From NCBI RefSeq assembly GCF_024502345.1, contig NZ_JALDNN010000001.1: a stretch of 64,000 bases of DNA. One strand, given 5' to 3'. This document shows positions 7,272 through 32,305 of the stretch, piece by piece; the first letter of the stretch is position 1; the number at the start of each line of letters is the position of its first letter. Below the pieces are notes generated by a model. It was not told where the DNA came from and searched no databases. It saw only the letters and a list, made by a program, of their open reading frames with translations. Origin of the DNA: Escherichia coli (GTDB taxonomy: Bacteria; Pseudomonadota; Gammaproteobacteria; Enterobacterales; Enterobacteriaceae). Made by a program: the position numbers and the translations under genes.

Positions 7272-7474
7272 ACGTTCAGCCCCGATAGTATTGGGGCTTC
7301 AGTATTTATCATCAGCGCAACGTTTCTACTGGCCTGGCTGAAAGAGCATTGGCTACACAACCGGGCAAACGAACTCTCAGTGCAACGTATGACATACAAA
7401 GCCTGTCATCAATATGAAATTGCGATAAAATCGGGCCAATAACAGTACTTAAGAATCATACAACAGGATACAAA

Positions 7475-9031: not shown

Positions 9032-10200
9032 GCGAGTTGAGTTATCTGGAAAAATTGCTGGATGGGGTTGAGGTTGAGTGGAAATCATTGGGAGATGTTG
9101 TAAATTTTCAGCGCGGAAGGCGGCTCGTAAAATCTCAGTTAGAAACCAGAGGTAAATATGCGGTTTACCAAAACAGCATGACACCACTCGGTTACTATCA
9201 TGAGTATAATGTCGCAGCTCAATCTTCGTTCATTATCTGTGCGGGTGCAGCCGGTGAAATTGGTTATAGCGAAAATGAATTTTGGGCTGCCGACGATGTT
9301 CATTTCGCAATCACACCAGAATATATAAATGACAGGTTTTTGTTTCATTTTTTGTTGACGCAAAAGAATAAAATTTCAGGACAAGTACGCCGTGCCAGTA
9401 TTCCGCGTCTCTCAAAGTCAGTAATTGAAAAACTTGAATTCCCCATCCCCTGCCCGGATAATCCGGAAAAGTCCCTTGCCATCCAGTCTGAAATCGTTCG
9501 GATTCTGGATAAATTTACTGCACTTACCGCTGAGCTTACCGCTGAGCTTAACATGCGTAAAAAACAGTACAACTACTATCGCGACCAGTTGCTGAGTTTT
9601 GATGAGGGTGAGGTTGAGTGGAAGGCTTTGGAGGAAGTCTCAACTTTTGCTAATGGAAAGGGGCATGAAAAAGACATATCAGAAGACGGTAAATATATTG
9701 TTGTAAACTCTAAGTTTATATCTACCAATGGCGAAGTCGCCAAGTTATCAAACAAACAGCTATGCCCTCTTTTTAAAGACGATATTCTTTTGGTTATGAG
9801 TGACCTGCCCAATGGCAAAGCACTTTCAAAAACATTTATTGTTGATGAAGATCATAAATACACTTTAAACCAACGTATTGGTGGAATTACAGTAAAAAAC
9901 AGTAATGAATTACTCCCTAAGTTTTTGCACTATTTTTTAAATAGAACCCCGCAATTGCTGAAACATGACAATGGTGTTGATCAAACAAATTTGCGTAAAG
10001 GTCAAATACTTGAAGTAAAAATACCAATAATTTCACTCATCAAACAAGTTCAGATCGTTGAAACTCTTGATAAATTCGATACTTACACTAAGTCGATTTC
10101 AGAAGGCCTCCCGCGCGAAATCGAGCTGCGCCATAAACAGTACGAGTACTATCGTGATTTATTGTTCAGCTTCCCGAGACCAGAAACCGCCAGCAACTGA
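9028..10200 (+). CDS. hsdS: type I R-M specificity subunit HsdS (type IC-like)
   Basis: Two target-recognition domains separated by a conserved central region with the TAEL repeats (LTAELTAEL) and a related C-terminal repeat (...[14 protein letters not shown]). Confidence 0.9.
9523..9550 (+). repeat. 12-bp direct repeat CTTACCGCTGAG x2 (plus partial CTTA) in the hsdS central spacer region
   Basis: Read directly: cttaccgctgag cttaccgctgag ctta, encoding LTAE-LTAE-L. Confidence 0.9.
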
Positions 10201-14270: not shown

Positions 14271-14319
14271 GGGATTGAAAATCCCCGTGTCCTTGGTTCG
14301 ATTCCGAGTCCGGGCACCA
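14271..14319 (+). tRNA. tRNA-Phe 3' fragment (anticodon stem to CCA), not a complete gene; likely an island attachment-site remnant
   Basis: GGGATTGAAAATCCCCGTGTCCTTGGTTCGATTCCGAGTCCGGGCACCA matches the 3' two-thirds of enterobacterial tRNA-Phe (GAA anticodon) as I recall it; no matching 5' acceptor or D arm upstream. Confidence 0.7.
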
Positions 14320-14516
14320 AATTCATATCAACGGACCTCCACGGAGGTCCGTTTTTCGTTTCAGAACGCCACAATTTAAGCGTTCTGCCTCCAAATCAAT
14401 TCTACCGAACTCAACCAGATTCCCCCCACATCAACCCCATTGTGTGGGTATAATTGCGGGTATACCCCAGTTCGACAGAATTTGTACCCTCTTTAACGCA
14501 TTCAGAAGGCTGAACT

Positions 14517-15782
14517 ATGGCACTGACTGACGCAAAAATCCGGGCTGCAAAGCCCACTGACAAGGCTTATAAACTCACTGACGGGGCCGGCATGTTCCTG
14601 CTGGTTCATCCTAATGGTTCCCGTTACTGGCGTCTCCGTTATCGTATTCTGGGTAAGGAGAAAACCCTGGCACTTGGTGTGTATCCGGAAGTTTCTCTCT
14701 CCGAAGCTCGTACAAAACGGGATGAGGCCCGAAAACTGATTTCGGAGGGGGTTGACCCTTGCGAACAGAAAAGAGCTAAAAAAGTAGTCCCTGATTTACA
14801 ACTCTCTTTTGAACATATTGCACGACGCTGGCATGCCAGTAATAAACAATGGGCACAATCACACAGCGATAAAGTACTCAAAAGCCTCGAGACACACGTT
14901 TTCCCCTTTATCGGCAACCGGGATATCACAACACTCAGTACCCCGGACCTGCTTATCCCTGTTCGTGCTGCAGAAGCTAAACAAATTTATGAAATCGCCA
15001 GTCGTCTGCAGCAAAGAATATCTGCTGTAATGCGTTATGCCGTACAGTCTGGCATCATCAGATATAACCCGGCTCTGGATATGGCTGGTGCATTGACCAC
15101 GGTAAAACGCCAGCATCGCCCTGCTCTGGATCTTTCACGCCTGCCTGAACTTCTGTCGCGTATTGACGGTTATAAAGGCCAGCCTGTCACCCGACTGGCA
15201 GTTATGCTGAATTTACTGGTTTTTATTCGTTCCAGTGAACTCAGATATGCCCGCTGGTCTGAAATTGATATTGACAATGCCATGTGGACTATTCCAGCCG
15301 AACGCGAACCTCTGCCAGGCGTAAAATTTTCATACCGGGGCTCCAAGATGCGAACACCACATCTTGTGCCACTCAGCCAACAGGCTGTAGCCATACTGGC
15401 AGAACTTCAGACATGGGCAGGTGAAAATGGTCTGATCTTTACGGGAGCACATGACCCACGTAAACCAATCAGTGAAAACACCGTAAATAAAGCCCTGAGG
15501 GTTATGGGGTATGACACAACCCAGGATGTCTGTGGTCATGGATTCCGGGCGATGGCATGTAGTGCATTAATAGAATCAGGTTTGTGGTCCCGCGATGCTG
15601 TGGAACGCCAGATGAGCCATCAGGAGCGTAATGGTGTACGTGCTGCGTATATCCATAAAGCCGAACATCTGGAAGAACGTCGACTTATGCTACAGTGGTG
15701 GGCCGATTTTCTGGATGCAAACAGAGAAAGATTTATCAGTCCATTTGAATATGCAAAGATTAATAATCCATTAAAACAATAA
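14517..15782 (+). CDS. int: P4-type tyrosine integrase
   Basis: 421 aa; N-terminus MALTDAKIRAAKPTDKAYKLTDGAGMFLLVHPNGSRYWRLRYR is characteristic of P4-like integrases; lies about 200 bp downstream of the tRNA-Phe fragment. Confidence 0.9.
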   Translation: MALTDAKIRAAKPTDKAYKLTDGAGMFLLVHPNGSRYWRLRYRILGKEKTLALGVYPEVSLSEARTKRDEARKLISEGVDPCEQKRAKKVVPDLQLSFEHIARRWHASNKQWAQSHSDKVLKSLETHVFPFIGNRDITTLSTPDLLIPVRAAEAKQIYEIASRLQQRISAVMRYAVQSGIIRYNPALDMAGALTTVKRQHRPALDLSRLPELLSRIDGYKGQPVTRLAVMLNLLVFIRSSELRYARWSEIDIDNAMWTIPAEREPLPGVKFSYRGSKMRTPHLVPLSQQAVAILAELQTWAGENGLIFTGAHDPRKPISENTVNKALRVMGYDTTQDVCGHGFRAMACSALIESGLWSRDAVERQMSHQERNGVRAAYIHKAEHLEERRLMLQWWADFLDANRERFISPFEYAKINNPLKQ

Positions 15783-16103: not shown

Positions 16104-17603
16104 TTACCTGTGGTCCGGAAGAATAAGTGGCTGCGGTTTCAGACTGTCTGCCGGCACATTTTTCTCTCCGTTAAAAACCATAACGGGTTCATTATCTTCG
16201 TCTGTCAGCGGATTGAATGGCGGTATATTTTCGGTACGAATACCGGTCAGCCACTGAAAAATGCCTGCGAAATTACGGGCACTGATTTTCCTGCTGACGG
16301 ACTGATGAGACGTGATGTCACTGGCGGTAATAATCAGGGGAACGCTGTAGCCCCCCTGCACATGACCATCATGATGAACAGGATTAGCACTGTCGCTGAC
16401 CGACAGCCCATGGTCAGAAAAGTAAAGCATTGCAAAGTGACGGGAATGCCGGCGAAGGATACCATCAAGCTGATCGAGAAAGTTATCCAGTTTACTGATG
16501 CTGGCGAGGTAACAGGCAATCTTTCGGGGATACTGCTCCAGGTAATAATTCGGCCAGGAGTTAAGTCGGTCACACGGATTCGGATGAGAGCCAATCATGT
16601 GCAGGAAAATCACCTTCGGCGAGGATTTATCCGCCAGCGCACGTTCTGTTTCCTGTAACAACAACATGTCATCCGTTTTACGGGAAGCGAAGCTGCCTTT
16701 CTTGAGGAAAACGGTATGCTCCGCATCAGAAGCAATAACAGAGATGCGTGTGTCATGCTCTCCCAGTTTTCCCTGATTGGATATCCACCATGTGCTGTAT
16801 CCTGCTTTTGCTGCCAGCGCCACCACGTTGTTGCCGGAGTCAGGGTTCTGCTCATAGTCATAAATCAGTGTCCGGCTCAGGGAAGGTACGGTACTGGCTG
16901 CTGCCGATGTATAGCCGTCAATAAATAAACCGGGAGCCGTATTCAGCCATGGTGTGGTTGGCACGGGATAGCCATATACCGACATATAATCCCTGCGCAC
17001 ACTCTCACCAGTAACGATAACAATCGTGTCATACAACGGTGTTCCCGGCAGGATTTTCCAGTTGTCAGCCCCGTGCTGACTCAGTTGTTTATAACGCTGC
17101 ATTTCACGCAATGTGTCAGTTGTTCCCACAACAATTCCTTTAACCATCCGCAACGGCCAGCTGTTTACAGAGCATAATACGAACAGCAGCAGTGCCAGCC
17201 AGTTACGGTGACCGCGGTGGTGTGTCCGCCAGAAAATCACCATGAATACCAGAATCGCGGCACTGACCAGAAAATGATAAACAGGAATCATCCCGGTAAA
17301 CTCTGCAGCCTCATCAGCCGTGGTCTGCAGCAACGCGACAATAAAACTGTTGTTGATTTTACCGTACGTCATACCCGCAGGCGCATACAGTGCACAACAG
17401 AACAGAAATAACAGCGTTGTAATGGATGTGAGGGTATTTCTGTGTGCAAGGAGAAGAAGGAGAAACAGAAGCAGCACATTTCCTGTGGCATTCTTCTCAG
17501 TGTATCCGCATGCAATTGTGATTATCACAGAAATAACAAAAAAGAATAAAAACAATAAAATCCGGGGTGTGTCGCCCGGACAAAACAGTTTTCTGATATT
17601 CAT
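16104..17603 (-). CDS. sulfatase-family phosphoethanolamine transferase (EptA/YhbX-like inner membrane protein)
   Basis: N-terminal multi-TM region then sulfatase-like domain with ...IVTGESVRRDYMSVYGY... and ...IFLHMIGSHPNP... motifs. Confidence 0.7.
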   Translation of the reverse strand: MNIRKLFCPGDTPRILLFLFFFVISVIITIACGYTEKNATGNVLLLFLLLLLAHRNTLTSITTLLFLFCCALYAPAGMTYGKINNSFIVALLQTTADEAAEFTGMIPVYHFLVSAAILVFMVIFWRTHHRGHRNWLALLLFVLCSVNSWPLRMVKGIVVGTTDTLREMQRYKQLSQHGADNWKILPGTPLYDTIVIVTGESVRRDYMSVYGYPVPTTPWLNTAPGLFIDGYTSAAASTVPSLSRTLIYDYEQNPDSGNNVVALAAKAGYSTWWISNQGKLGEHDTRISVIASDAEHTVFLKKGSFASRKTDDMLLLQETERALADKSSPKVIFLHMIGSHPNPCDRLNSWPNYYLEQYPRKIACYLASISKLDNFLDQLDGILRRHSRHFAMLYFSDHGLSVSDSANPVHHDGHVQGGYSVPLIITASDITSHQSVSRKISARNFAGIFQWLTGIRTENIPPFNPLTDEDNEPVMVFNGEKNVPADSLKPQPLILPDHR

Positions 17604-17762
17604 CGGAGTATATCGACAACATTATTATGAAGAGAACAGGATAATAAAAATCAGAAATTATCTGTAAAACAGATAACAGACAACCCTGCAGTATAATTAC
17701 TGCAGGGTGTTTCCTTTTAATTACAGAAGATAAGTAATTATTATCTTTCAGGAGCAGTTTCG

Positions 17763-18503
17763 TCAGAAGTTATAAGTCACACCAAGCATGATGTCATGAC
17801 TTTTAACATCAACCTCTGATTTATATTTATCGCCCCACTCATCCTTGTAACTCACACTGCTGTCACCTGCATCAATATAGCGATAGCTGAGGTCAAGAGC
17901 GATATCCGGGGTTACGTCATAACGGACACCAGCCCCAAGGCTCCATGCAAAGTTGTCAGCAGAGTCTGAGTGTGACAACGACTCACGCCCACTGTACCCG
18001 TACCCGTAATCCCAAGTACTGATACCAGTTGTTTTCTGATGAATTCTGGCGTAACCAATCCCTGCGGATACCCATGGTGTGAATGCACTGTCGTTCCGGA
18101 AGTCATAGTACGTATTCAGCATCAGAGTGTTGACTGACACTTCATTCTTCAGGTCATCACGCCAGTAACCACCTGACCAGCTGTCTTTATCTACGTTATA
18201 CTTCGAATCAGCTTTTCCACGCGCGTAAAACTCCAGTTCTGTACGAACCGGAATACTGAACTGCGGATAAAAATCATAACCGGCCGCAATACCGCCACTG
18301 AATACCGTATCATGGTCATCGCCGCCTTTATACTTTGACGTTTCTTCCTCATCTCCTGACAGGAAACGCTGGTCTGAAAGTGACACCACAGAGGCACCGG
18401 CTTTACCGGTCAGATAAAAACCGCTTTTACCTTCCTCAGCACCTGCATTTGCTGCAAATACACAGGCTGCGGCCACCACTGAAACAGCAAAAACCTTTTT
18501 CAT
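17763..18503 (-). CDS. outer membrane beta-barrel protein, Tia/Hek/PagN-like (Ail/OmpX superfamily)
   Basis: Signal peptide MKKVFAVSVVAAACVFAANAGA; alternating aromatic beta-strand pattern; C-terminal ...GVTYNF. Confidence 0.6.
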   Translation of the reverse strand: MKKVFAVSVVAAACVFAANAGAEEGKSGFYLTGKAGASVVSLSDQRFLSGDEEETSKYKGGDDHDTVFSGGIAAGYDFYPQFSIPVRTELEFYARGKADSKYNVDKDSWSGGYWRDDLKNEVSVNTLMLNTYYDFRNDSAFTPWVSAGIGYARIHQKTTGISTWDYGYGYSGRESLSHSDSADNFAWSLGAGVRYDVTPDIALDLSYRYIDAGDSSVSYKDEWGDKYKSEVDVKSHDIMLGVTYNF

Positions 18504-18937: not shown

Positions 18938-19379
18938 GGTAATGACTCCAACTTATTGATAGTGTTTTATGTTCAGATAATGCCCGATGACTTTGTCATG
19001 CAGCTCCACCGATTTTGAGAACGACAGCGACTTCCGTCCCAGCCGTGCCAGGTGCTGCCTCAGATTCAGGTTATGCCGCTCAATTCGCTGCGTATATCGC
19101 TTGCTGATTACGTGCAGCTTTCCCTTCAGGCAGGATTCATACAGCGGCCAGCCATCCGTCATCCATATCACCACGTCAAAGGGTGACAGCAGGCTCATAA
19201 GACGCCCCAGCGTCGCCATCGTGCGTTCACCGAATACGTGCGCAACAACCGTCTTCCGGAGCCTGTCATACGCGTAAAACAGCCAGCGCTGGCGCGATTT
19301 AGCCCCGACATAGCCCCACTGTTCGTCCATTTCCGCGCAGACGATGACGTCACTGCCCGGCTGTATGCGCGAGGTTACC
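18938..19379 (-). mobile_element. IS1 fragment (about 440 bp from one end), truncated by the adjacent IS3-family element
   Basis: End GGTAATGACTCCAACTTATTGATAGTG at 18938 and InsB C-terminal coding sequence; homology to IS1 stops at about 19379. Confidence 0.85.
18953..19330 (-). pseudogene. insB: IS1 transposase InsB, 5'-truncated
   Basis: Translation [48 protein letters not shown]...[11 protein letters not shown] matches the C-terminal part of InsB; N-terminal region absent. Confidence 0.85.
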
Positions 19380-19445
19380 TGCTCCCCGTTGATTAATACA
19401 CCGTGATGTTAGTAATGTCTTCATAAGCCACATGAGGACATCCCC

Positions 19446-19709
19446 ATGAAGAAGCGTTTTTCCGACGAACAGATCATATGTATTCTCCGCGAGGCCGAAG
19501 CTGGCGTTTCTGCCCGTGAGCTCTGCCGTAAGCACGCCATTTCCGACGCCACCTTTTACACATGGCGTAAGAAGTATGGCGGTATGGAGGTGCCTGAGGT
19601 TAAGCGCCTGAAGTCGCTTGAGGAAGAGAACGCCAGACTCAAGAAGCTGCTTGCCGAAGCCATGCTGGATAAAGAGGCGCTTCAGGTGGCTCTTGGGCGA
19701 AAGTACTGA
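19446..19709 (+). CDS. IS3-family transposase OrfA (HTH)
   Basis: [49 protein letters not shown]... Confidence 0.85.
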
Positions 19710-19732
19710 CGACAGACCAGAAGCGGGAAGCC

Positions 19733-20566
19733 GTGATGTTGATGTGTGATGCGACCGGTCTGTCGCAACGTCGTGCCTGCAGGCTTACAGGTTTATCCCT
19801 GTCGACCTGCCGCTATGAGGCTCACCGTCCGGCTGCTGATGCGCATTTATCAGGGCGCATCACTGAGCTGGCACTGGAGCGCAGGCGTTTTGGCTACCGT
19901 CGTATTTGGCAGTTGCTGCGCCGTGAAGGGCTTCATGTTAATCATAAGCGCGTGTACCGGCTTTATCACCTCAGTGGCCTGAGCGTAAAACGCAGAAGAC
20001 GTCGTAAAGGGCTGGCAACAGAACGTCTGCCGCTGCTCCGTCCGGCGGCGCCCAATCTGACCTGGTCGATGGATTTCGTCATGGACGCACTTTCCACCGG
20101 TCGCAGGATCAAGTGTCTTACCTGCGTCGATGATTTCACAAAGGAATGCCTGACGGTCACTGTTGCCTTTGGGATTTCAGGCGTTCAGGTCACGCGTATT
20201 CTGGACAGCATTGCACTGTTTCGAGGCTATCCGGCGACGATAAGAACTGACCAGGGGCCGGAGTTCACTTGCCGTGCACTGGATCAATGGGCCTTTGAGC
20301 ATGGTGTTGAGTTGCGCTTAATCCAGCCGGGCAAGCCAACGCAGAACGGATTTATTGAGAGCTTTAACGGACGATTTCGCGATGAATGTTTGAATGAGCA
20401 CTGGTTCAGCGATATCGTTCATGCCAGGAAAATTATTAATGACTGGCGGCAGGATTATAACGAATGCCGCCCGCACTCCACGCTGAATTATCAGACACCG
20501 TCTGAATTTGCAGCGGGCTGGAGAAAGGGTCATTCTGAGAATGAAGATTCCGACGTTACTAACTGA
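19733..20566 (+). CDS. IS3-family transposase OrfB (DDE integrase-like catalytic domain)
   Basis: ...[10 protein letters not shown]...[50 protein letters not shown]... Confidence 0.85.
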
Positions 20567-20812
20567 GTGTTGTATCTAATCGTGGGGGCAGGTCACTCGA
20601 CTTGGTTCCATTAAAAACCATGAAGTTGATATAGGGTCAAGATTTTATACGATATACACATCAAGCATCTTGCATGAGTCGCACTGACTGACCCGGGTTA
20701 GTTACCATCATATTCTTTATGGTTGAGACCATACGGAAATCAGTGAATTAAAAATATTTATTCATCCAAAACACAAATGGTTTTAAGAAAGCCTAATGCC
20801 CTTCTTGTAAAA

Positions 20813-21082
20813 TTATTCAAGATAGTCAAGTATGTTTTTTATATTGTCAATTAAGGCGACATGCAGGTCAGGGTCATCACATTCATCTGAATGGCAATAG
20901 GAAATATGTTGAAGTATAATTCTTTTTTTGAATTCACTAACTGTACACTCCAACTCATACACCGACCGTACGATATCAATACAAGGTTCATCATCGATTA
21001 AAAAATCCTGCATTTTATTATACTTATCAGTCAGATCTTCTATCATAGAAATTAATACGGGGTCATTAACTAACATTGGCAT
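20813..21082 (-). CDS. hypothetical small acidic protein (89 aa)
   Basis: ORF 20813..21232 trimmed to the ATG preceded by AGGAGA; AT-rich; no family recognised. Confidence 0.35.
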   Translation of the reverse strand: MPMLVNDPVLISMIEDLTDKYNKMQDFLIDDEPCIDIVRSVYELECTVSEFKKRIILQHISYCHSDECDDPDLHVALIDNIKNILDYLE

Positions 21083-21470
21083 ATCTCTCCTCATAATCTG
21101 AAAGTAAAGATGGACACAGCGCTGATAAATTCCAATTCCCTTGCTTGCGGTACCGACCGGGAGGAAGATGAAACTTGTTTTTAAAAGCTCTCGTGAAAGT
21201 TTGTTGCGAATTAAAACCATACTGAAGTGCAATGTCTAGGACTGTTCTGGAAGTCAATTTCAGATCAATCGCAGCACATGATAATCGACGAGCACGAACA
21301 TATTCACCCAGCGCAACACCGGTCGTCTGTTTAAACAAACGTTGAAAATGCCATCGTGAATACCCAGACTTCTCAGCAATAAATTCTACTGGCAAGGTTG
21401 TATTCAATGAACTTTCAACCCACTGCAAAATATCTTTGACAACACTTTCAGAATATTTCCTGGTGTCCAT
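21066..21470 (-). CDS. AraC-family transcriptional regulator of the MarA/SoxS/Rob type
   Basis: ...KSGYSRWHFQRLFKQTTGVALGEYVRARRLSCAAIDLKLTSRTVLDIALQYGFNSQQTFTRAFKNKFHLPPGRYR aligns in my recollection with MarA/SoxS dual-HTH domains. Confidence 0.7.
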   Translation of the reverse strand: MDTRKYSESVVKDILQWVESSLNTTLPVEFIAEKSGYSRWHFQRLFKQTTGVALGEYVRARRLSCAAIDLKLTSRTVLDIALQYGFNSQQTFTRAFKNKFHLPPGRYRKQGNWNLSALCPSLLSDYEERYANVS

Positions 21471-21562
21471 TCTCTCCCCCCAAACCATATTCTATGAATA
21501 TATTCAAACCAGAATACGGTCTCTGAGTCTGTCATCCATGAAGAACTCAGGGACCCAACTCT

Positions 21563-24064
21563 TTATTTTCGTAATAACCTCAGGCCATTTGCCACAACCA
21601 GAAGACTGGCACCAACATCAGCAAATACAGCCATCCACATAGTTCCCATTCCCATGAGCGTGAGTACAAGGAATACGGCTTTAATACCTAGAGCGAGGCT
21701 GATATTTTGCACGAGTAAGCTGTACGTTTGTCGGGATAATTTTACAAAGGCTGGGATTTTACGCAGGTCATCATCCATTAAGGCTACATCTGCAGTTTCA
21801 ATCGCCGTATCAGTACCCATTGCGCCCATAGCAAAACCGATATCAGCTGCAGCCAGAGCCGGTGCATCATTGATACCATCACCAACCATCCCAGTGATTC
21901 CAATCCGTGAATGCTCTTCAACTGCACGATGTTTATCTTCTGGCAATTGATTCCCTCGAGCCTCATCGATTCCAACCTGAGATGCGATTGCTTTAGCTGT
22001 ATGTGGGTTATCACCAGTCAGCATAATAGTTTTAACGCCAAGTTCATGAAGTTGTTCAATCGCTTCACGGCTGCTGTTTTTAACAGTATCAGCAACAGCG
22101 AACAACCCAAGCACTTGCTTACCATCATTGAGTAAAATAACTGTTTTACCCTGGCTTTCCAGCCTTTGTACTGTTGCTTTAATCTCTGATGGACAATTAA
22201 AGTGTTCTTCAGTCAAACGCAGGTTACCAAGGTAAAAATCCTTACCTGTAATCGCGCCATGCACACCTCGCCCAACAATCGCTTCAAAGCTGTCAACATC
22301 CTGCTTTTTCAAATCAGCAGAAGCATTCACAATTGCCAGTGAAACAGGGTGATCAGAGTAACTAGCGAGACTAGCTGCAGTAGTACGAACTTCACGCTCG
22401 CTCCACCCATTGAATACCATTACGTCGGTTTGTACTGGTTTCCCATAGGTAATAGTTCCTGTTTTATCCAGCGCAAGGGCTTTTAGCTTACGTCCCTGCT
22501 CAAGATAAACACCGCCTTTAATGAGAATCCCTTTGCGAGCAGCTGCAGTAAGTCCACTAACAATCGTTACTGGCGTAGAAATAACCAGGGCACATGGACA
22601 CGCAATGACAAGCATAACTAAAGCTTTATAGATCCACTCCTGCCATGTTCCTGCCCCAAACAATGGTGGCAATACAGCAACCGCAACAGCAATACCCATA
22701 ACGACGGGGGTATAAATCTGGGAAAAGCGGTCAACAAAACGTTGTGTAGCTGCTTTGGCGCCTTGCGCCTGCTCAACGGCATGAATGATGCGAGCAAGGG
22801 TTGTATTATTTGCAGCTGCAGTGACTTTATATTCAAAAGAGCCTGACTGATTTATTGTTCCAGCAAATACAGCATCGCCCGCAATTTTATCGACAGGCAT
22901 ACTTTCACCTGTAATTGGAGCTTGGTTAATGGTGGTTTGGCCTTTGACGATTTCTCCGTCGAGACCAATTCGTTCACCTGGTTTTACCCTGACAATACTG
23001 CCCGGTTGTACGCTACTGGCGTCAACTTCCTGCCATGTTCCATCAGCTTGTTGGACCATTGCAGTTTCAGGAGTCAGGTTCATCAGGGAACCTATTGCAT
23101 TTCTGGCTCTATCAAGTGATTTGGCTTCTATCAGCTCGGCAATGGTGAATAACACCATAACCATCGCCGCTTCTGGCCACTGCCCAAGGACCAAAGCCCC
23201 AGTAACGGCAATACTCATTAGTGCATTGATATTCAAGTTGCCATTGCGAATCGAAATCCAACCTTTTTTGTAGGTTGTCAGACCACAAGAAAGCACTGCT
23301 ATCAAAGCCAACCCAGCTTCTAGCCAGTCAGGCATATCAGCCCAGTGCATCACTTCGGCTGCAAGAGCAGCTACGCCAGCAAGAGCTAATGGCCACCAGG
23401 GCTTTTTTTTCTCCTGGGTATTTTTCTTGCCGCTAGTATTATCAGAGACTTCTGGCGCGAATCCCAACGAGCGAATTGCAGCCATGATAGCTTCAAGCGA
23501 ATCCGGTGTATGGGTTACAGTCAAAACACGCTGCATCAGGTTGAAATCAAGCTCTTTAACAGCGCTCATTCCACCCAGTTTCTTTTTGATAAGATTTTCT
23601 TCAACAGGACAATCCATCTGCATAATGCGAATTTCTGTCCGTAATCCACCAGCCACAACCTGCGAGCCCCCTAGGCTACTCAATTGTTCTGGAGCAGCGG
23701 AGCAACAATCCCCCTCATGGCCGTGATCGTGGCCTTCATGAGAATGCTCTTGCGCGGCATGAGCATGGTTACATCCCTTATGATTATGCTCATCATGCGA
23801 ATGCCCTTCGCCGCCATGGCTATGGGCATCATGATTATGGCCTTCATGGTTATGGCCTTCATGGTTATGACCTTCATGGGAATGATCATCACTGCATTTC
23901 TTGTGATTATGAGCCTGCTGATCATGTGCATGATCATTTGCTTTATGTGATTCACCAGTATTCTTAACCCGGAGTCCTGTCCCTAAATTGAACGTTTCAC
24001 AGCAACTAGCCGCTTCGTCTCCTGCAGGGTTTTTGCTATTTTTTACACCACCACTCATTTTCAT
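21563..24064 (-). CDS. cadA: heavy-metal translocating P1B-type ATPase (Zn/Cd/Pb-type, CadA/ZntA-like) with His-rich N-terminus
   Basis: 833 aa; N-terminal HEGHNHEGHNHEGHNH repeats; CPC membrane motif (IACPCALVIS); phosphorylation motif DKTGT; [10 protein letters not shown] hinge. Confidence 0.9.
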   Translation of the reverse strand: MKMSGGVKNSKNPAGDEAASCCETFNLGTGLRVKNTGESHKANDHAHDQQAHNHKKCSDDHSHEGHNHEGHNHEGHNHDAHSHGGEGHSHDEHNHKGCNHAHAAQEHSHEGHDHGHEGDCCSAAPEQLSSLGGSQVVAGGLRTEIRIMQMDCPVEENLIKKKLGGMSAVKELDFNLMQRVLTVTHTPDSLEAIMAAIRSLGFAPEVSDNTSGKKNTQEKKKPWWPLALAGVAALAAEVMHWADMPDWLEAGLALIAVLSCGLTTYKKGWISIRNGNLNINALMSIAVTGALVLGQWPEAAMVMVLFTIAELIEAKSLDRARNAIGSLMNLTPETAMVQQADGTWQEVDASSVQPGSIVRVKPGERIGLDGEIVKGQTTINQAPITGESMPVDKIAGDAVFAGTINQSGSFEYKVTAAANNTTLARIIHAVEQAQGAKAATQRFVDRFSQIYTPVVMGIAVAVAVLPPLFGAGTWQEWIYKALVMLVIACPCALVISTPVTIVSGLTAAARKGILIKGGVYLEQGRKLKALALDKTGTITYGKPVQTDVMVFNGWSEREVRTTAASLASYSDHPVSLAIVNASADLKKQDVDSFEAIVGRGVHGAITGKDFYLGNLRLTEEHFNCPSEIKATVQRLESQGKTVILLNDGKQVLGLFAVADTVKNSSREAIEQLHELGVKTIMLTGDNPHTAKAIASQVGIDEARGNQLPEDKHRAVEEHSRIGITGMVGDGINDAPALAAADIGFAMGAMGTDTAIETADVALMDDDLRKIPAFVKLSRQTYSLLVQNISLALGIKAVFLVLTLMGMGTMWMAVFADVGASLLVVANGLRLLRK

Positions 24065-24090
24065 TGCCTCATCTGTTAACTATACTGACG

Positions 24091-24121
24091 ATTAAAGACC
24101 CTAATCTAACTAGAGGGTCAA
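24091..24121 (-). promoter_or_regulatory. MerR-type promoter/operator (divergent region between the ATPase gene and cadR)
   Basis: Minus-strand TTGACC (-35), 19-bp spacer containing the dyad GACCCT...AGGGTC, then TTTAAT (-10); the 19-bp spacer with internal dyad is the MerR-family signature. Confidence 0.6.
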
Positions 24122-24139
24122 GCGCATAAGGGGGGAGGC

Positions 24140-24592
24140 ATGAAAATTGGTGAATTGGCCCGTAAGGCGGATTGTCCGGTGGAAACTATTCGGTACTATG
24201 AGAAAGAAGGATTACTTCAGGCTCCATTAAGAGATATTGAAAATAACTATCGCCGTTACAACAATACTCATCTGGAAAAGTTATTATTTATCCGACGCTG
24301 CCGCTCTCTTGATATGACCCATGAGGAAATACGTGCATTGCTACTGGCAATGAATAATCACGGTAAAGACTGTGGCCCCATTGATGCAATAATCAGTGCC
24401 CATCTCACTCATGTTCAGCATCGTATTAAAGAATTAATAGCCCTGGAAATACAACTCAAAGAACTTAATAACTATTGCAGCTCAGACCGGAGCGTGGACG
24501 AATGCGGGATAGTACAGAAATTGACTGCTGATGAAGAGAATGGTGATCTTCCTTTAACCGTACCAACTGACCACTTGGGGGGTGTGCATTAG
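24140..24592 (+). CDS. cadR: MerR-family metal-responsive regulator, CadR/PbrR-like
   Basis: MKIGELARKADCPVETIRYYEKEGLL...; divergent from the P-type ATPase gene. Confidence 0.8.
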   Translation: MKIGELARKADCPVETIRYYEKEGLLQAPLRDIENNYRRYNNTHLEKLLFIRRCRSLDMTHEEIRALLLAMNNHGKDCGPIDAIISAHLTHVQHRIKELIALEIQLKELNNYCSSDRSVDECGIVQKLTADEENGDLPLTVPTDHLGGVH

Positions 24593-24681
24593 TGGTGTGC
24601 GCTTATAAGTTGATTAGACTGATGGCGTAACACAAGCCCATACAGCTTTGTGCTACGCCATCATGCCCTTAAAATAAGGGG

Positions 24682-25146
24682 TCAGGCTTTTTCCATTTCG
24701 TTACCACGAGAACGACGTTGCACTGCCCCTTCTCTCTTACCGGGATGGCTTTTAGCATCAGCGGTCATTAATGTCTGGAGTATTGGGCATTCAACTCGCT
24801 CATCCCCAGCACAGCTTTTGATCAGAGCTCTGAGTGTATCTGCCATTCGTCGCATATTTTCCATACGTCGCTCTAAATCATCCATATGCTCTTGTGCCAG
24901 ACGTTTAACATCGGCGCTCTGGCGAGATTTGTCATTCCATAACTTGAGCAAATCGGCTATCTCTTCAAGAGAAAAACCAAGATCGCGCGCACTGCGGATA
25001 AAAATCAGACGATGGACATCATTGGGTGCATAATCACGGTAGCCCGCTTCGGTACGGCCAGTAGCAGGAATCAGACCAATTTGCTCGTAATAGCGAATCA
25101 TCTTTGCGGAGATTCCTGATTCGTTCGATGCTTTACCAATGTTCAT
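24682..25146 (-). CDS. cueR: MerR-family copper-responsive regulator, CueR-like
   Basis: ORF 24682..25284 trimmed to MNIGKASNESGISAKMIRYYEQIGLIPA...; C-terminal Cys pair ...CAGDERVEC...; immediately downstream of copA. Confidence 0.8.
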   Translation of the reverse strand: MNIGKASNESGISAKMIRYYEQIGLIPATGRTEAGYRDYAPNDVHRLIFIRSARDLGFSLEEIADLLKLWNDKSRQSADVKRLAQEHMDDLERRMENMRRMADTLRALIKSCAGDERVECPILQTLMTADAKSHPGKREGAVQRRSRGNEMEKA

Positions 25147-25159
25147 AGCTCCCCTTTTC

Positions 25160-27655
25160 TTAGTGCTCAGAGTCTTCTGCCAGCGGAGGCTGGAACCGAC
25201 GCAAACGAAGTGCGTTGCCCAGGACAAATACACTGGATAGCGCCATCGCGCCTGCAGCAAAGATTGGTGAAAGCAGCAATCCATAGGCAGGGTACAGCAG
25301 GCCTGCTGCTACAGGGATCAATGCGGCATTATAACCAAACGCCCAAAAAAGATTTTGCCTGATGTTACCTATGGTTGCCTTAGACAATCCAATAGCATTA
25401 GGCACACCCTGTAGGTTGCCGGACATTAAGACAACATCAGCAGATTCCACCGCTATATCGGTACCTGTACCAATTGCAAGCCCAATATCTGCCACGGCTA
25501 AAGCTGGGGCATCATTAATGCCATCACCAACATAAGCGACCTTACCGTAAGACTCCTTCAACCGACGAACTGCTTCAACTTTCCCTTCTGGCAACACTTC
25601 GGCAACCACTTCATCAATACCAAGCTGTCTCGCAATCGCATTTGCTGTATTGGCATTGTCACCGGTAATCATTGCGACTTTGAGCCCCAGTTGGTGCAAT
25701 GCATTTATGGCAATCGGCGTACTTGATTTAATAGGGTCAGCGACTGCGATAATGGCAGCCAGACGTCCATCAATAGCAACATAGAGTGGCGATTTTCCTT
25801 CGTTTCCAAGGCGTATCGCAGTCTTTGAAAAATACTCGATATCCAAGCCTAACTCACGCATAAATCGATCGGCCCCGACCTCTACGCGCTCTCCGTCTAC
25901 GGTAGCCCTGACGCCCATCCCAGTAATTGAATCAAACTCAGTCAACGCTGGCAGCGATATCTCTTTTCCTAGAGCAGCTTCAACGATAGCGCGGGCAATA
26001 GGATGTTCCGAACGTGATTCAACAGCGGCAACTTTTGCTAATACTAAGTCAAGCTCAAACCCTTCGGCCAACTCCAGGTCTGTCATTACTGGGCGCCCTT
26101 CAGTCAAAGTACCTGTTTTGTCTACAGCGACAACCCTGGCATCTTTAAGCAACTGCAGAGCTTCTCCCTTACGGAACAAGATCCCCATTTCTGCACCACG
26201 CCCAGTACCTACCATGATAGAGGTTGGGGTAGCCAATCCCATTGCACATGGGCAGGCAATGATCAATACAGCCACGGCATTAACCAGTGCGAAAGACAGG
26301 GCCGGTGATGGCCCAAATGTTAACCAGGCAAGGAAAGTTAACAACGCTGCCAGCATCACCACAGGAACAAACCATAATGTCACCTTATCGACCACGGCTT
26401 GTATAGGTAGTTTAGAGCCCTGGGCTTGCTCTACCATTCTGATTATTTGTGACAACATCGTCTGGCCACCAACGGCTGTTGCACGCAACCTCAATGCTCC
26501 TTTCTGGTTAACAGTCCCGCCAACCATTAAGCTTCCGGGAACTTTCTCGACGGGGATAGGCTCCCCCGTTATCATCGATTCATCGACAAAACTTGTTCCT
26601 TCACTCACCTCACCATCAACAGGTATCCGCTCACCTGGTCGAACTTCGATAATGTCATCAAGGGCTACATCACTAATGGGAATATCGATGACAATGCCGT
26701 TACGCAGCACATGCGCCTCTTTGGCCTGCAATCCAACCAAACGCTTGATAGCCTCAGACGTTCGACCTTTAGCTCGCGCCTCCATAAATCGTCCTAAAAG
26801 AATAAGAGCGACGATTACCGCAGCAGCTTCGTAATACACATTGACGGTACCTTGAGGCAAAAGACCTGGAGCAAAGGTCGCAATCATTGAATAACCGAAT
26901 GCAGCGAGAGTCCCGACGGAGACGAGAGAGTTCATGTCTGGGCCAAGTCTTAATAACGCGGGAATACCTTTCAGGTAAAAGCGCCGCCCCGGAATAGCCA
27001 ACACCAGCAATGTTAATACAAACTGGAGATACCAGCTTTCCTGGAGCCCAATGGTATCCATTATCCATTGATGCATTCCCGGTATCACATGCGACCCCAT
27101 TTCCAGAATAAATACTGGTAACGCAAGTACGGTCGCCAGAACTAAATCTTTCTTCAACGCAACCTTTTCAGCATCTTTTTTTTCTGCGGCACTATCATTA
27201 TTCTGGCTTTGGTTATCAACCAGGCTGGCTTCATAACCGATTTTTTCGATAGCAGTTATGAGGTCATCAACTCCTGCGGTTCCACGTACAGTAGCTCTTT
27301 CAGTCGCTAAATTAACAGTGGCTTCTTTTACACCTTTAACCGCTCGGAGCGATTTTTCGACACGCCCTACGCATGATGCACATGTCATGCCCTGAACTGA
27401 TAACTCTACAGAAGCTTGAGGAACCTCATAACCAACCTTTTCAACTGCTTCAACCAACGCCATACGATTAACGAATGCATTTAGGCGGATATCTGCACGC
27501 TCTGTTGCAAGGTTAACGCTTACGTTTTGTACGCCTTCAACCTTAGCCAGAGCGGCTTCAACTCGTCCAACGCAGCTTGCACAAGTCATTCCCTCAATGG
27601 GCAAGCTGACTTGAGTTTCACCATCATTAGAATGCTGTTTTTTTTGAATGCTCAT
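25160..27655 (-). CDS. copA: copper(I)-translocating P1B-type ATPase CopA
   Basis: 831 aa; two N-terminal HMA domains with [12 protein letters not shown]; CPC motif ([10 protein letters not shown]); DKTGTLT; [10 protein letters not shown]. Confidence 0.9.
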
Positions 27656-27691
27656 GATGTATTTCTCATCGTTATGGTCAGATAAAGAACA

Positions 27692-27722
27692 ACCTTAAGG
27701 CTTACCATCGTGGGAAGGTCAA
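27692..27722 (-). promoter_or_regulatory. putative CueR-controlled copA promoter
   Basis: Minus-strand TTGACC followed by a spacer with partial dyad (CTTACC...GGGAAG) resembling the E. coli copA operator as I recall it; approximate. Confidence 0.35.
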
Positions 27723-27840
27723 GCGCATTATTTTGAACATGCCGATGCCGTGGAAGGAATGGATATAAAAACCCTTTACATGAACACATATTCATATGTT
27801 ATATTGAAGGCATCATGTATAACCAACCGCTTGAGGCCCT

Positions 27841-28845
<1,005 letters not shown>

Positions 28846-28890
28846 TCAGGCCTCTGGTGATGCACTATCAATTTAGGAGGGAGAATCATA

Positions 28891-29253
28891 ATGTCCAGCA
28901 CATCAGATTGCGGCAACATACAAGACTGTTCCGCGACAGATCATGTCGCGGAGCCAGATCTATCAATGCTCTCGCAAAACGACATTGGGCAACTTTCCGA
29001 GATTTTCCATCTACTGGGGGACCAGTCAAGACTACGAATCCTGCTTTACTGTATGCGTGGTTCGGTCTCTGTAGGCGACATTGCTGAGTCGCTCCAGTTA
29101 TCACAATCTCTGGTCAGTCATCATCTGAGGTTGTTACGAAGTGCAAGGCTTGTTCGCGGAGAGAGAAAGGGTAAGTACATATTTTATAGCATAATGGATC
29201 ACCATGTAAGTCATGTTCTTCAGGACATGGTATTTCACATAGCTGAAGAATAA
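28891..29253 (+). CDS. ArsR/SmtB-family metalloregulatory repressor
   Basis: HTH ...VGDIAESLQLSQSLVSHHLRLLRSARLV...; start codon choice uncertain. Confidence 0.7.
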   Translation: MSSTSDCGNIQDCSATDHVAEPDLSMLSQNDIGQLSEIFHLLGDQSRLRILLYCMRGSVSVGDIAESLQLSQSLVSHHLRLLRSARLVRGERKGKYIFYSIMDHHVSHVLQDMVFHIAEE

Positions 29254-29487
29254 CCCGAATGAATTTTGATAAGTAGAGCTTGTGTAATTCCAACTCACCT
29301 TAGTTTTTCATTACTTTGGTGAGTTGTTTCATCATTAATTTATTAAAACCTTAATAATTAACCTTTTAATAATGAAACCTGCCCCCTTCCCTTGTATGTA
29401 ATAAATACCTGATGGTTCACTATCACCAGATAAAGCGAAGTGAGCAGGCCACCTCATGAAGGAGAAACCTTGCTTTGCAAGCTTATT

Positions 29488-29550
29488 GAATAGCCACGGA
29501 TAATCTAGTTTGTCTGCTTCGTGCCAAAAGCGGACATTGCTACATCACAA
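29488..29550. repeat. solo IS3-family inverted-repeat-like 21-mer followed by a palindromic element (copy 1 of an inverted pair)
   Basis: GAATAGCCACGGATAATCTAG nearly matches the IS end TGAATCGCCACGGATAATCTAG at 33425; then TGTCTGCTTCGTGCCAAAAGCGGACAT...TGCTACATCACAA, inverted relative to the copy at 32483..32519. Confidence 0.5.
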
Positions 29551-29637
29551 TGCGTTATGGTCAACATCAGAATGCAGCCCTTGTGTTGTGACGTGTAGTC
29601 TGGCCTAAACGCAGTTGCACTACATTACCTCGTGGGG

Positions 29638-29886
29638 TCAGCGACGGCCCCGTTTCAGTTCACGTACACAGGGATCATACTCATCTGCATAGCCACCAAA
29701 GTCATGGCTGGGCATGAAGTACCACTTTTCACCTTTCCAACCAGCGATCCGGGTGGTCGGTTTGGTTTTATTCAGAACAACAATACAGACGCCGACGGGA
29801 GACACTGGAGGAAGAAGTCGTTGCACCACACACTCACGATTGCCCACATCAATCCAGTCTTTGACGTGAATTTCAGGATGGTTCAT
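29638..29886 (-). CDS. hypothetical protein (82 aa)
   Basis: ORF only; overlaps a plus-strand ORF (29632..30057); strand choice uncertain. Confidence 0.3.
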   Translation of the reverse strand: MNHPEIHVKDWIDVGNRECVVQRLLPPVSPVGVCIVVLNKTKPTTRIAGWKGEKWYFMPSHDFGGYADEYDPCVRELKRGRR

Positions 29887-30166
29887 TGTTTATCTTCATG
29901 TGATGGAATTGCTTACCGTAATGCATCCGATTACCGTGCAAGATCATGTATCCTGTCGCCTTCCTGCTCCCTTGAGGTGGCGCTGCCTTGGTACAGTCAG
30001 CACTCTGAATGTCAGGCCCAGCCGCGAGGCCGGAAGCTCATCAGGTCGCTGCGGTAGGGGAAAACGGTCCGGGTAACAGACCGTAATCGCCTGCTGGTGG
30101 TTATTGGCCCTGACTGGAGCCGCACTGAAAACTGAAGCGCATTAATATACTCGCGCCTCCGACAGG

Positions 30167-32305
30167 TCAGGCAATTTCTTCCAGCGCATCGTCATTTGCC
30201 GGTGGAGGAGGAAGTATAAGCGCGTCGCACTCCCTGATGACATATTCAGGAATGAGATCAAACCGGGCAGGATCCAGCTGACAGATAAATTCATTTTCAA
30301 TGTGGTAGGTCTCATTCATGAATTTACGTATTACTGCGTTCTCGAGTCCGGTCTGAAGCAACCTGAACACCTGCAGTTTCTCGTAGCCATTACGGCAGAG
30401 CAGATAAAGCGCACGTATACGATCCGGGTCGGTGAGCTGAACGAAAGTGGCCTGGTAGTCAAAGCCGGGAATGCGATCGGCGATTGCCTGGCAGCCGAAG
30501 GCAACTTTTTCTGCGGACATTTCAGGATGTCCCACTCCCTGCACAACGGGTTCACGGGTGTCGATGGGCGTTTCACGGTGATGAAAAAGGTTTGACAGCA
30601 CCTGATAGGCATCACCGAGGTCGTCCATAATTTCATAATGTCGGCGAAGATAGATCAACTTGATGATGTCTTCACTATCAGAGTCAGTGACAGACTGGCA
30701 GATCTGAGCAAAAGTGCGGATATCACTTTCACCGATGAGCTGCTCGGTGATGCAGCCTGCGCTGTAGTGCAAGTGTGAGGCCGTAACCAGATTACTGAAC
30801 AGCTTCCTGACGGACTTCAGTGTATCAATAATAGGCTCAACATCGTGAGTCAGCATCAGTACCGTTTCATTTTTCAGGCACTCACCGGTATTGCGGCGAA
30901 ACAGCATCTCCAGGATGGCAAATTTCTTGTTCTTATCAAACGATGAAATCGGGTCGTCAAGAATGATCAGGCCTGGCTTCTTGGCTAAGCATTCATACAT
31001 AAACAGAACAATGGCAAAGGCGTTGCGTTCACCGTAGCTGAGATGCTGGCTGCCGCCGCTGACGTAGCCTTCAAAGTCTTCGTGGCGCAGTTTCAGCCGA
31101 CATTTATCGCCTTCCCCAGTGATATCCACCTGATAACGATAGCCTGCGTAAGCCAGAAAGGTATTGATATCGGTTTTATGCTTGAGGATCAGCTTCTGCA
31201 TGCCCTGACGCTGCTTATTTATTTGACCCTGCAGGCGTCCGGCCTGCGTCGTCAGGTCGTCTAAAGAGGTATTGAGACTGGCTACGGTGCGGGCCGTTTT
31301 ATCCGACTGCAGCTCCGGGAAAAACTTCACGTCTAGGCGACAGGCTTCCAGTGCAGCCTTGACGTTGGTTGAAGCGCTGAACGTAAAGCCGTTAAGAGTC
31401 TTAAGGGTATTCAGCATATTTATCAGGCTGTCTGTCTGCTTCTTCACTGTCACGAGATATTCTTCGTGCTGTTTTTCCAGCCCACTTTTTAGGGTTGTAA
31501 TATCAGCGAGGCGGGCACGGGCAGGCTCTGAAAAATATTCGCCGAGTTTATCTAGCACGCCGATCAGGCCGATCAGGTTTTTAATGACAGCCTTATCATA
31601 CTCCGCGCTGACGCGGCTAATCTGCTCGGCCTTTTCACGGGAGTCGCCAGTACAGAACGGACAGCAGCCGTCGGATAGCGCGGAGAATTTCTCATACCCC
31701 CGGGTCTGCCACTCGATCCACTCTACGCTGCTTTTACTTTGGATGTACGGCTTATAAGATTCCAAACCGTCGGGAATGTGCTGAAGCTTGTTGCCAGCGG
31801 ATAAGCCTTTCATACCGGTAGACGTTTTTGCAATCCCGGTACTACTCAGCTTAAATGCGGCGCTGAGTTCCCCCAGGTGCGTGATGAATTCTTCAAGCCC
31901 GACGTTATCAGCAAACTGCTGCCGTATGGCCACGACCATGGCTTCGATTTCGCGTTCTGTCTCGTGATACGCTTCACTTTTGATGAAGATGTCAAAACTA
32001 TTACTTACTAACTCGTCTGGTTGAAAAGTGAATTGATCGACATATTTTTCATTAAAGCACATGACGTTTTGCAGGCCATCGACACCAGTTACCCTAGGCT
32101 GTACTGCATCGGGATTAGAACCACGGTATCTAAACGGAAGCAGGTCGCTGAGACCCTGTTCATCCCCGTTTACCGTACACTGAATCGCGCGGGAAATGGT
32201 GCTTTTTCCGGTGCCGTTAGGCGCAAATTTAATATTTAGTTTTTTTTCTGCCAGAGTTATATTTGCTTTATCGATGTTATTACAGCAATTAATTTCAATT
32301 TCCAT
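30167..32305 (-). CDS. ABC-type ATPase with coiled-coil insert and CxxC zinc-hook motif (RloC/Rad50-like); candidate abortive-infection or anticodon-nuclease-type defence protein
   Basis: 712 aa; Walker A FAPNGTGKST near the N-terminus; long helical insert containing DGCCPFCTGD; Walker B LIILDDP; H-loop LTHD; C-terminal domain of about 220 aa with ...YLRRHYEIMDD...FHHRE.... Confidence 0.6.
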   Translation of the reverse strand: MEIEINCCNNIDKANITLAEKKLNIKFAPNGTGKSTISRAIQCTVNGDEQGLSDLLPFRYRGSNPDAVQPRVTGVDGLQNVMCFNEKYVDQFTFQPDELVSNSFDIFIKSEAYHETEREIEAMVVAIRQQFADNVGLEEFITHLGELSAAFKLSSTGIAKTSTGMKGLSAGNKLQHIPDGLESYKPYIQSKSSVEWIEWQTRGYEKFSALSDGCCPFCTGDSREKAEQISRVSAEYDKAVIKNLIGLIGVLDKLGEYFSEPARARLADITTLKSGLEKQHEEYLVTVKKQTDSLINMLNTLKTLNGFTFSASTNVKAALEACRLDVKFFPELQSDKTARTVASLNTSLDDLTTQAGRLQGQINKQRQGMQKLILKHKTDINTFLAYAGYRYQVDITGEGDKCRLKLRHEDFEGYVSGGSQHLSYGERNAFAIVLFMYECLAKKPGLIILDDPISSFDKNKKFAILEMLFRRNTGECLKNETVLMLTHDVEPIIDTLKSVRKLFSNLVTASHLHYSAGCITEQLIGESDIRTFAQICQSVTDSDSEDIIKLIYLRRHYEIMDDLGDAYQVLSNLFHHRETPIDTREPVVQGVGHPEMSAEKVAFGCQAIADRIPGFDYQATFVQLTDPDRIRALYLLCRNGYEKLQVFRLLQTGLENAVIRKFMNETYHIENEFICQLDPARFDLIPEYVIRECDALILPPPPANDDALEEIA

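Follow-up and report, generated by a model that had tools for sequence, protein, structure and literature searches.

An IS1 remnant joined to a probable ISKpn34/ISSen4 recombinant at the left edge of a metal-resistance segment in an Escherichia coli chromosomal island

A complete IS1 of the IS1A type is 768 bp long and carries two terminal inverted repeats, insA, an A6C frameshift window and insB. IS3-family elements end in 5'-TG...CA-3' and encode an orfA with a helix-turn-helix domain and an orfB with an rve/DDE integrase core in 0/-1 frames, joined by -1 frameshifting; within this family, the IS407 group generates 4-bp target duplications. Three members are pertinent here. ISSen4 is listed in the IS3 family, group IS407 (PMC10044399, Table 2), and is 1221 bp long (PMC10741216). 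IS1222 makes its transposase via the sequence G_CGA_AAG (PMC5009743). ISKpn34, also of the IS3 family, has the same length as ISSen4 and is colinear with it, the two differing at 149 sites (87.8% identity). IS1, ISSen4 and ISKpn34 are thus all known already, as are IS remnants, IS-bounded island edges and hybrid IS elements formed by recombination.

In this study, we analyzed a 64,000-nucleotide stretch of DNA (hereafter the window) from an Escherichia coli assembly (GCF_024502345.1, contig NZ_JALDNN010000001.1), in which part of an IS1 directly adjoins an IS3-family element at the left edge of a metal-resistance module. We read the region from 18938 to 20595 as a probable three-layer IS scar, to which we assign a probability of about 0.78: an ISKpn34 that had entered a BREX-linked gene, a deletion joint with IS1 on one side of it, and a crossover between ISKpn34 and ISSen4. 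Only the present recombinant and the point at which it meets the metal module are new.

The IS1 remnant and its flank

The IS1 sequence comprises 442 bp (18938-19379, minus strand) and corresponds to nucleotides 327-768 of IS1 in standard orientation. Direct reading of the letters places the start of the IS1 terminal repeat (GGTAATGACTCC / GGTAATGACTCCAACTTATTGA) at 18938, and the outer terminal inverted repeat (18938-18960, minus strand) reads GGTAATGACTCCAACTTATTGAT. The repeat expected of the IS1 family, beginning GGTAATGAC, is present at this end only. When aligned with the intact chromosomal IS1 of E. coli ET450, the remnant shows 2 mismatches in 442 bp (99.5% identity), and the homology spans the common flank and runs through 19379, where it ends. 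Past this base, IS1 reads GGTTACC followed by GACTG, whereas the window reads GGTTACC followed by TGCTCC; in longer form, the bases after GGTTACC are GACTGCGG in IS1 and TGCTCCCC in the window. The initial annotation had placed the IS1 homology at 18938 to about 19379 and the cut in IS1 at the latter position, and these coordinates are right to the base.

A minus-strand open reading frame at 18953-19330 encodes the C-terminal part of the IS1 transposase (Pfam DDE_Tnp_IS1, PF03400; E=1.5e-73). The NCBIfam model transpos_IS1 matches the remnant with 128 bits, covering profile positions 100-199 of 199 only, and the insB frame is open as far as the joint. The right inverted repeat and the 3' part of insB have therefore been retained in these 442 bp, and the left repeat, insA, the frameshift site and the 5' part of insB are missing. 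A BLAST search of 18938-20595 against the whole window returned the self-hit alone, with no further IS1 sequence, which bears out the earlier statement that the rest of IS1 is not found on the far side of the element. With one end and without a transposase, the IS1 stump is inert, except that its 442 bp offer homology through which other IS1 copies could recombine with it.

The outer end of the remnant adjoins the flank of an outer-membrane-protein gene, and the sequence across this boundary, AAAAAGCCCAC followed by GGTAATG, is identical in ET450. An intact IS1 occupies the same flank in at least 18 complete E. coli genomes, within the tRNA-Phe (pheU) island. Among the genomes that share the joint between IS1 and the IS3-family element, the flanks beyond the IS1 repeat are of at least six different kinds, with that of the window being a seventh, and the IS1 remnants show patchy differences between them. 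Varied flanks and patchy remnants are both to be expected if other IS1 copies have recombined with, or converted, these sequences. The outer-membrane-protein flank of the window may be original or may have been gained through recombination between two IS1 copies.

A probable hybrid of ISKpn34 and ISSen4

The neighbor of the IS1 remnant is an element of 1219 bp (19377-20595, plus strand) that corresponds to positions 3-1221 of its 1221-bp parents. We agree with the earlier description of it as an IS3-family, IS407-group element with intact orfA and orfB, the group assignment following from the listing of the nearest named IS, ISSen4. No gap interrupts its alignment with 1221-bp reference copies (ISSen4 in the PGAP annotation), and its identity is 98.5% to ISSen4 over 1219 bp and 89.3% to ISKpn34. 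The sites at which the two references differ reveal a finer structure. Of the 18 diagnostic sites within positions 3-224, 17 are of the ISKpn34 type in the window; of the 131 within positions 281-1221, 130 are of the ISSen4 type. The type changes only once, the last ISKpn34-type site being position 224 (19598) and the first ISSen4-type site position 281 (19655). The ISKpn34-derived segment (19377-19598, plus strand) holds the left inverted repeat minus its TG and the 5' part of orfA, and the ISSen4-derived segment (19655-20595, plus strand) runs from the last part of orfA through the frameshift element and orfB to an intact right inverted repeat, the final bases of which are GGGGGCAGGTCA. The interval between them (19599-19654, plus strand), in which a crossover would have occurred, is a 56-bp tract that is identical in ISKpn34 and ISSen4.

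A single site in each half, position 128 in the left and position 608 in the right, bears the allele of the other parent. The first of these, a T that is otherwise private, is common to the window and to the ISKpn34 copies that are joined to IS1 in five complete chromosomes and is thus explained by parental lineage. With those five copies the window shares every base of positions 3-280 (0 mismatches), the first difference falling at 281. A search with the left part alone (the region of IS positions 22-224) retrieved ISKpn34 at 99.3-99.6% identity. Two other mosaic relatives differ from the window at 46-48 sites. The exact hybrid was not found in 5,426 complete E. coli genomes, where the best full-length identity was 98.6%, and no PLSDB record spans the crossover, across which the best identity was 98.1%. 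No second copy of ISSen4 or ISKpn34 was found by BLAST against the whole window. Judged by its diagnostic sites, the element is a recombinant of ISKpn34 and ISSen4 and not one IS. Under the ISfinder naming rule, elements that are at least 90% identical in DNA along their full length count as the same element or an isoform; by this rule the element would be named an ISSen4 isoform, though a recombinant. This calls for caution in automated IS typing, as the present copy would receive the label ISSen4 despite a left fifth of ISKpn34 origin and a defective left terminus, and similarity-based labels hide both chimeras and defective ends.

The coding capacity of the hybrid follows the gene layout of the IS3 family. 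orfA (19446-19709, plus strand) encodes 87 amino acids with the Pfam domain HTH_Tnp_1, and orfB (19703-20566, plus strand, -1 frame) encodes the rve/DDE integrase core (Pfam rve, rve_3 and HTH_21). A programmed -1 frameshift element lies at 19676-19793 (plus strand), with the slippery sequence G_CGA_AAG at 19697-19703 and a downstream stem; over this interval, the Rfam model RF00383 (IS1222_FSE) matches at its full length (1-118 of 118) with 156.6 bits against a gathering score of 45. The 373-amino-acid OrfAB fusion scores 310.5 bits with NCBIfam transpos_IS3 (cutoff, 160). OrfA and OrfAB are intact in the hybrid, whereas the ISKpn34 parent has an internal stop; the hybrid OrfAB is intact because the part that is defective in the ISKpn34 parent came from ISSen4. 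A scan for promoters and terminators gave nothing above the shuffled expectation. The element is probably immobile or strongly impaired, since its left end lacks the conserved terminal dinucleotide. The left end of IS2 likewise lacks CA-3', yet it functions in the second transposition step. With an intact transposase regained and a competent right end, it is a less likely possibility that the hybrid is still mobile, by way of circles or one-ended movement.

The joint with IS1, its BREX-linked relatives and the metal-resistance segment

The joint between IS1 and the IS3-family element, J1, is a 3-bp overlap, ACC (19377-19379), which in a seven-sequence alignment belongs both to the IS1 end GGTTACC and to the IS3-family left end TGACCTGC. 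Intact relatives start with TGACCTGCTCCCC and finish with GGGGGCAGGTCA, and the element in the window begins with ACCTGCTCCCC (ACCTGC). The imperfect left end mentioned in the initial annotation is therefore the absence of the first two bases, TG; at the right, the terminus GGTCA is present and ends at 20595. A clean IS3-family insertion into IS1 would have retained the terminal 5'-TG of the element. In agreement with the habit of the IS407 group, intact relatives are flanked by 4-bp duplications, namely ACTC (IAI1), TCGC (pCTXM15_085104) and GGAT (pE28_001). We carried out the suggested check for a target-site duplication around the element of the window and found none, with GGTT or GAGG on the left versus CTCG on the right. 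Because the TG is missing, the ACC is shared and there is no target duplication, J1 is not a clean transposition product. A single illegitimate join or deletion at a 3-bp microhomology accounts for all of these features, whereas insertion needs an additional change. By our own calculation, an overlap of at least 3 bp is expected by chance at about 5% of random joins, so that microhomology-mediated joining at ACC is no more than suggested.

The joint is not private to the window. A 101-bp query across J1 matched at 101 of 101 positions in five complete E. coli chromosomes (NMBU_W05E18, ESBL 15, ET729, PSS-11 and LR-28). A look-up by the BrxL protein led to 10 places, 8 of them with J1; these include the PSS-11 and LR-28 chromosomes again and thus add 6 further assemblies. 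Exact-pattern scans of GTDB species genomes and of JGI metagenomes gave 0 matches to the left junction, and no PLSDB record spans it. J1 is identical by descent in many E. coli, an old joint that they share.

The IS next to J1 in the five chromosomes is a pure ISKpn34, which PGAP annotates as a pseudogene with an internal stop in orfB (SFN*RFRDE). Its right end is intact and is followed by CATCTACTGAACC, a 65-codon open reading frame and then brxL, pglZ and pglX of a BREX-1 system. One metagenome scaffold has the same site free of IS, and there the 65-codon frame is the start of an intact 882-amino-acid gene; the unoccupied site reads GTAGATG followed by GTGTTGATAAAATCC, versus GTAGATG followed by TGACCTGCCCCC in the genomes carrying ISKpn34. 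As the unoccupied site is known, ISKpn34 therefore entered the BREX-linked gene, not IS1, by transposition. The IS1 joint on the other side of ISKpn34 most likely arose later, as a deletion or illegitimate join. One further locus was considered as the ancestral state and rejected, being another deletion variant in which ISKpn34 is truncated internally.

On the right of the hybrid, the terminus GGTCA abuts CTCG, and homology to plasmids begins exactly at 20596; the sequence of this junction is GGGGGCAGGTCACTCGACTTGG. The ISSen4-type right end appears to sit at a clean site, with CTCG (20596-20599) as the presumed 4-bp target of the ISSen4 parent, the left-hand copy of which is lost. The metal-resistance segment (20596-33424) encodes two P-type ATPases, a CDF transporter, ArsR, an AraC-type regulator, and MerR-type and CueR regulators. 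It is 100% identical to the IncHI2A plasmid p17277A_477, the IncHI2A call applying to this plasmid as the sole one replicon-typed. Among the matches listed, 15 other plasmids of 213-477 kb are also 100% identical over 20596-33424 and one further hit is at 98.8%; the hosts are Klebsiella, Raoultella, Citrobacter and E. coli. None of these plasmids has an IS at this point; they read GCTACT followed by CTCGACTTGG and continue leftwards into lpxC and cueR, and these two genes of the plasmid-type island are absent from the window. The right edge of the module, at 33425, is a different IS3-family element. The initial annotation took the IS region as the left edge of the metal module; the homology does start at 20596, but the edge is one made by an IS and lies inside a larger island. 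The joint-bearing ISKpn34 and ISSen4 scar marks the join of the metal segment to the E. coli chromosomal island.

The right junction was found in none of PLSDB, the GTDB species representatives or the JGI metagenomes, nor in complete E. coli genomes, where a match would cover more than 50% of the query and rank first. A composite transposon carrying the metal module was considered and rejected, as the window has no second copy of IS1, ISSen4 or ISKpn34. Three plasmids with IS1 and ISSen4 or ISKpn34 close together were likewise rejected as precursors, since their neighborhoods are unrelated.

Proposed history, alternatives and comparison with known elements

Our results are consistent with a history in three steps. 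In the first, which comparison of occupied and unoccupied sites shows, ISKpn34 transposed into the gene for 882 amino acids that lies downstream of brxL in a BREX island of E. coli. In the second, a deletion or illegitimate join at ACC would have fused IS1 nucleotide 327 to ISKpn34 nucleotide 3; the product of this step is observed directly, and the event would have removed the left 326 bp of IS1, the TG of ISKpn34, its target duplication, the rest of the BREX-linked gene and all that lay between. Separately, as the clean right end suggests, a copy of ISSen4 would have inserted at CTCG of the metal island that is also found on IncHI2A plasmids, and the left junction expected of this parent in the plasmid-type island is GCTACTCTCGTGACCTGCTCCCC. 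In the third step, RecA-type homologous recombination between the resident ISKpn34 and this ISSen4, within 19599-19654, would have swapped the BREX flank for the metal module in the lineage of the window. We infer this crossover because the chimera has a single switch and the flank changes simultaneously with it. A chimera of two ISs points to homologous recombination, not insertion plus deletion, as what brought in the metal module. No reciprocal recombinant, with ISSen4 on the left and ISKpn34 on the right, was found. Nor was an ISSen4 found at CTCG with both flanks intact, so the ISSen4 parent is one that we infer and do not observe.

The alternative that survives best, though we consider it distinctly unlikely, is gene conversion, in which an ISSen4 donor patched an IS1-joined ISKpn34 over positions 281-1221 and the metal module arrived by an unrelated event. 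The patchy differences among the IS1 remnants of the joint-bearing genomes are typical of conversion tracts, and the single allele of the other parent in each half of the hybrid would also suit such an origin, the one at position 128 having its explanation in lineage. However, a second, independent event would then have to exchange the BREX flank at precisely the final IS base, whereas a single crossover covers both the chimera and the change of flank. Gene conversion with a separate flank change is therefore possible but less parsimonious than a crossover, and the same holds for an artefact of assembly.

More improbable still is the course proposed in the initial annotation, namely that a single IS3-family element inserted into IS1, at about nucleotide 326/327, and thereby truncated it, with a later deletion from its right end joining the metal module. 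It has in its favor that IS1 and the element directly adjoin, that the right end of the element is intact and that the window lacks the distal part of IS1; moreover, the T at 19375 could stand for IS position 1 if position 2 had changed from G to T. Against this, the absence of TG requires an extra deletion of 1-5 bp or a mutation that recreated the next bases of IS1 (TTACC), and the element is a chimera of two parents. The identical J1 occurs elsewhere, next to a pure ISKpn34 with the BREX right flank, and for that BREX-linked site an unoccupied counterpart is known. IS3-family transposition proceeds by copy-out/paste-in, which is not expected to yield adjacent deletions such as this course requires. 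Together with the shared ACC and the lack of a 4-bp duplication, these points lead us to set aside insertion into IS1 as the cause of its truncation. Least probable is a misjoin in assembly of a chromosomal IS1-ISKpn34 contig to a plasmid ISSen4-metal contig through the 56-bp tract: the switch does fall precisely where the two ISs have the same sequence, plasmid DNA matches the right-hand 12.8 kb at 100% identity, and the hybrid and its right junction occur in no other record, but the window runs unbroken through an IS30, another IS3-family element and a group II intron and re-enters chromosomal sequence of E. coli near 50.5 kb. This repeat-spanning pattern suggests a long-read or finished assembly, and an artefact would demand more than one false join.

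Under the preferred reading, a crossover between ISKpn34 and ISSen4, the junctions speak for homologous recombination between ISs that are related though named differently, and not for transposition. The main value of the locus lies in annotation and in tracing how a metal segment of IncHI2A megaplasmids reached an E. coli chromosomal island. It leaves the knowledge of IS biology unchanged and is ordinary mobile-element archaeology, of which it is a well resolved example. We also entertain, as a speculation with rather poor odds, that, in the tRNA-Phe islands of E. coli, the joint of IS1 stump and ISKpn34 serves repeatedly as a "homology adapter." On the IS1 side, it may recombine with the many IS1 copies of a genome, in keeping with the at least seven different flanks, and its IS407-group side may recombine with related ISs on incoming DNA. 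If this were true, cargo (BREX in most genomes and metal resistance here) would be swapped at the scar without transposition.

The window thus shares features with several known elements and coincides with none of them. What it shares with IS1 is the right inverted repeat together with the 3' 442 bp, placed where ET450-type pheU islands carry an intact IS1; missing are the left repeat, the 5' part of insB, insA and the A6C frameshift window, so that its IS1 is a dead remnant. With IS1222 it shares the G_CGA_AAG -1 frameshift site and the downstream stem, but IS1222 is a different element, and the comparison concerns the frameshift cassette alone. It is like ISSen4 in positions 281-1221, which differ from the IAI1 copy by one base, and in its right inverted repeat, orfB and frameshift site. 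Its 373-amino-acid OrfAB differs from that of IAI1 by 3 residues, and PGAP names close copies "IS3-like element ISSen4 family transposase." Of its 18 mismatches to ISSen4, 17 fall in positions 22-224, where it bears ISKpn34 alleles, and it has neither the terminal TG nor a target duplication. It resembles ISKpn34 in positions 3-224, with one mismatch to plasmid references, but from 281 onward it departs from ISKpn34 at 130 of the 131 sites that separate the latter from ISSen4. Also close to it are the joints of IS1 remnant and ISKpn34 near BREX-1, which agree with the window in where IS1 breaks off, in the loss of TG and in the sequence of the joint. There, J1 leads into a pure ISKpn34 with its stop and then into the truncated gene and brxL, pglZ and pglX; the window, whose flank past the IS1 end is also different, switches instead to ISSen4 and then to the metal-resistance segment.

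ISKpn34 copies and their target beside BREX

In five complete E. coli chromosomes that carry the same IS1/ISKpn34 joint with BREX beyond it (L015-L019), the IS1-joined, BREX-adjoining ISKpn34 (locus coordinates 8117-9237) has an internal stop in orfB (SFN*RFRDE), and PGAP labels these copies as pseudogenes. The window's ISKpn34/ISSen4 hybrid, in contrast, has an intact OrfAB (19446-20566), because ISSen4 is the source of the stretch that holds the stop in the chromosomal copies. We found an unoccupied form of the ISKpn34 target at 6120-8768 of the metagenome scaffold HAYD20-1...scaffold_238 (L029), where an intact gene of 882 aa, for which no Pfam match is on record, lies directly downstream of brxL. 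Only the first 65 codons of this gene are left in the IS-bearing genomes.

Variable flanks of the IS1 stump and the region of the tRNA-Phe repeat

The outer end of the IS1 remnant is abutted by at least six different sequences among the joint-bearing genomes (L015-L028), and the window's own flank beyond the IS1 repeat is a seventh type. L017 and L019 share the same flank, with a 19-bp shift as the sole difference. The IS1 end itself occurs in two variants among L015-L028, GGTAATGACTCC and GGTAGTGACTCC. Such variety suggests that the stump has recombined with other IS1 copies more than once, or that deletions have occurred next to it. Directly to its left in the window is a gene pair (within 16104-18503) encoding a 499-aa phosphoethanolamine transferase, whose neighboring homologue is annotated with a Sulfatase domain, and an adjoining 246-aa outer-membrane beta-barrel protein; the pair is likewise kept in pheU islands of the type found in ET450, an E. 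coli strain with an intact IS1 at the same position. Farther left, an att-like repeat at 14271-14319 corresponds to the final 49 nt of tRNA-Phe and is followed by a tyrosine integrase gene (14517-15782); the window contains no complete tRNA. A type I restriction-modification cluster stands separately upstream, and for this reason the 14271-15782 region resembles part of a tandem or mosaic arrangement of islands at a tRNA-Phe locus.

The metal island, its right edge, and the defense cluster

Within the version of the metal island carried by the IncHI2A plasmid p17277A_477 is a 180-bp remnant (28314-28492 of the plasmid locus) that matches window positions 20414-20591, at the right end of the hybrid IS, with 79% identity, so the island has been visited by IS407-group elements on an earlier occasion. 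The 12.8-kb metal segment is bounded on the right by another IS3-family element at 33425-38146 (ends TGTGAATCGCCACGG... and ...CCGTGGCGATTCA), which has two interruptions: a group II intron (Rfam Intron_gpII, 33910-33996; reverse transcriptase/maturase ORF, 34000-35523) and an IS30-family element (transposase, 36674-37825). At this point the IncHI2A plasmid has ~31 kb of extra sequence (RND efflux, eno, and crcB), and it appears to keep 33 bp of the IS end, judging from a coordinate overlap at 38114-38146. An intronless version of this IS3::IS30 composite is present in ESBL 15 and NMBU_W05E18, in opposite orientation and ~1.3 kb from the IS1 stump, and in LR-28 it lies far nearer to the stump. 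At the far right, homology to the plasmid island stops at 50533 and chromosomal homology begins at 50524; from there to 61115 the window shares 99% identity with a defense cluster of the E. coli chromosome, as in APEC E16002, where it is annotated with a DEAD/DEAH helicase, a DNA methyltransferase, AIPR, Abi, SNF2, and mads1 (methylation-associated defense system).
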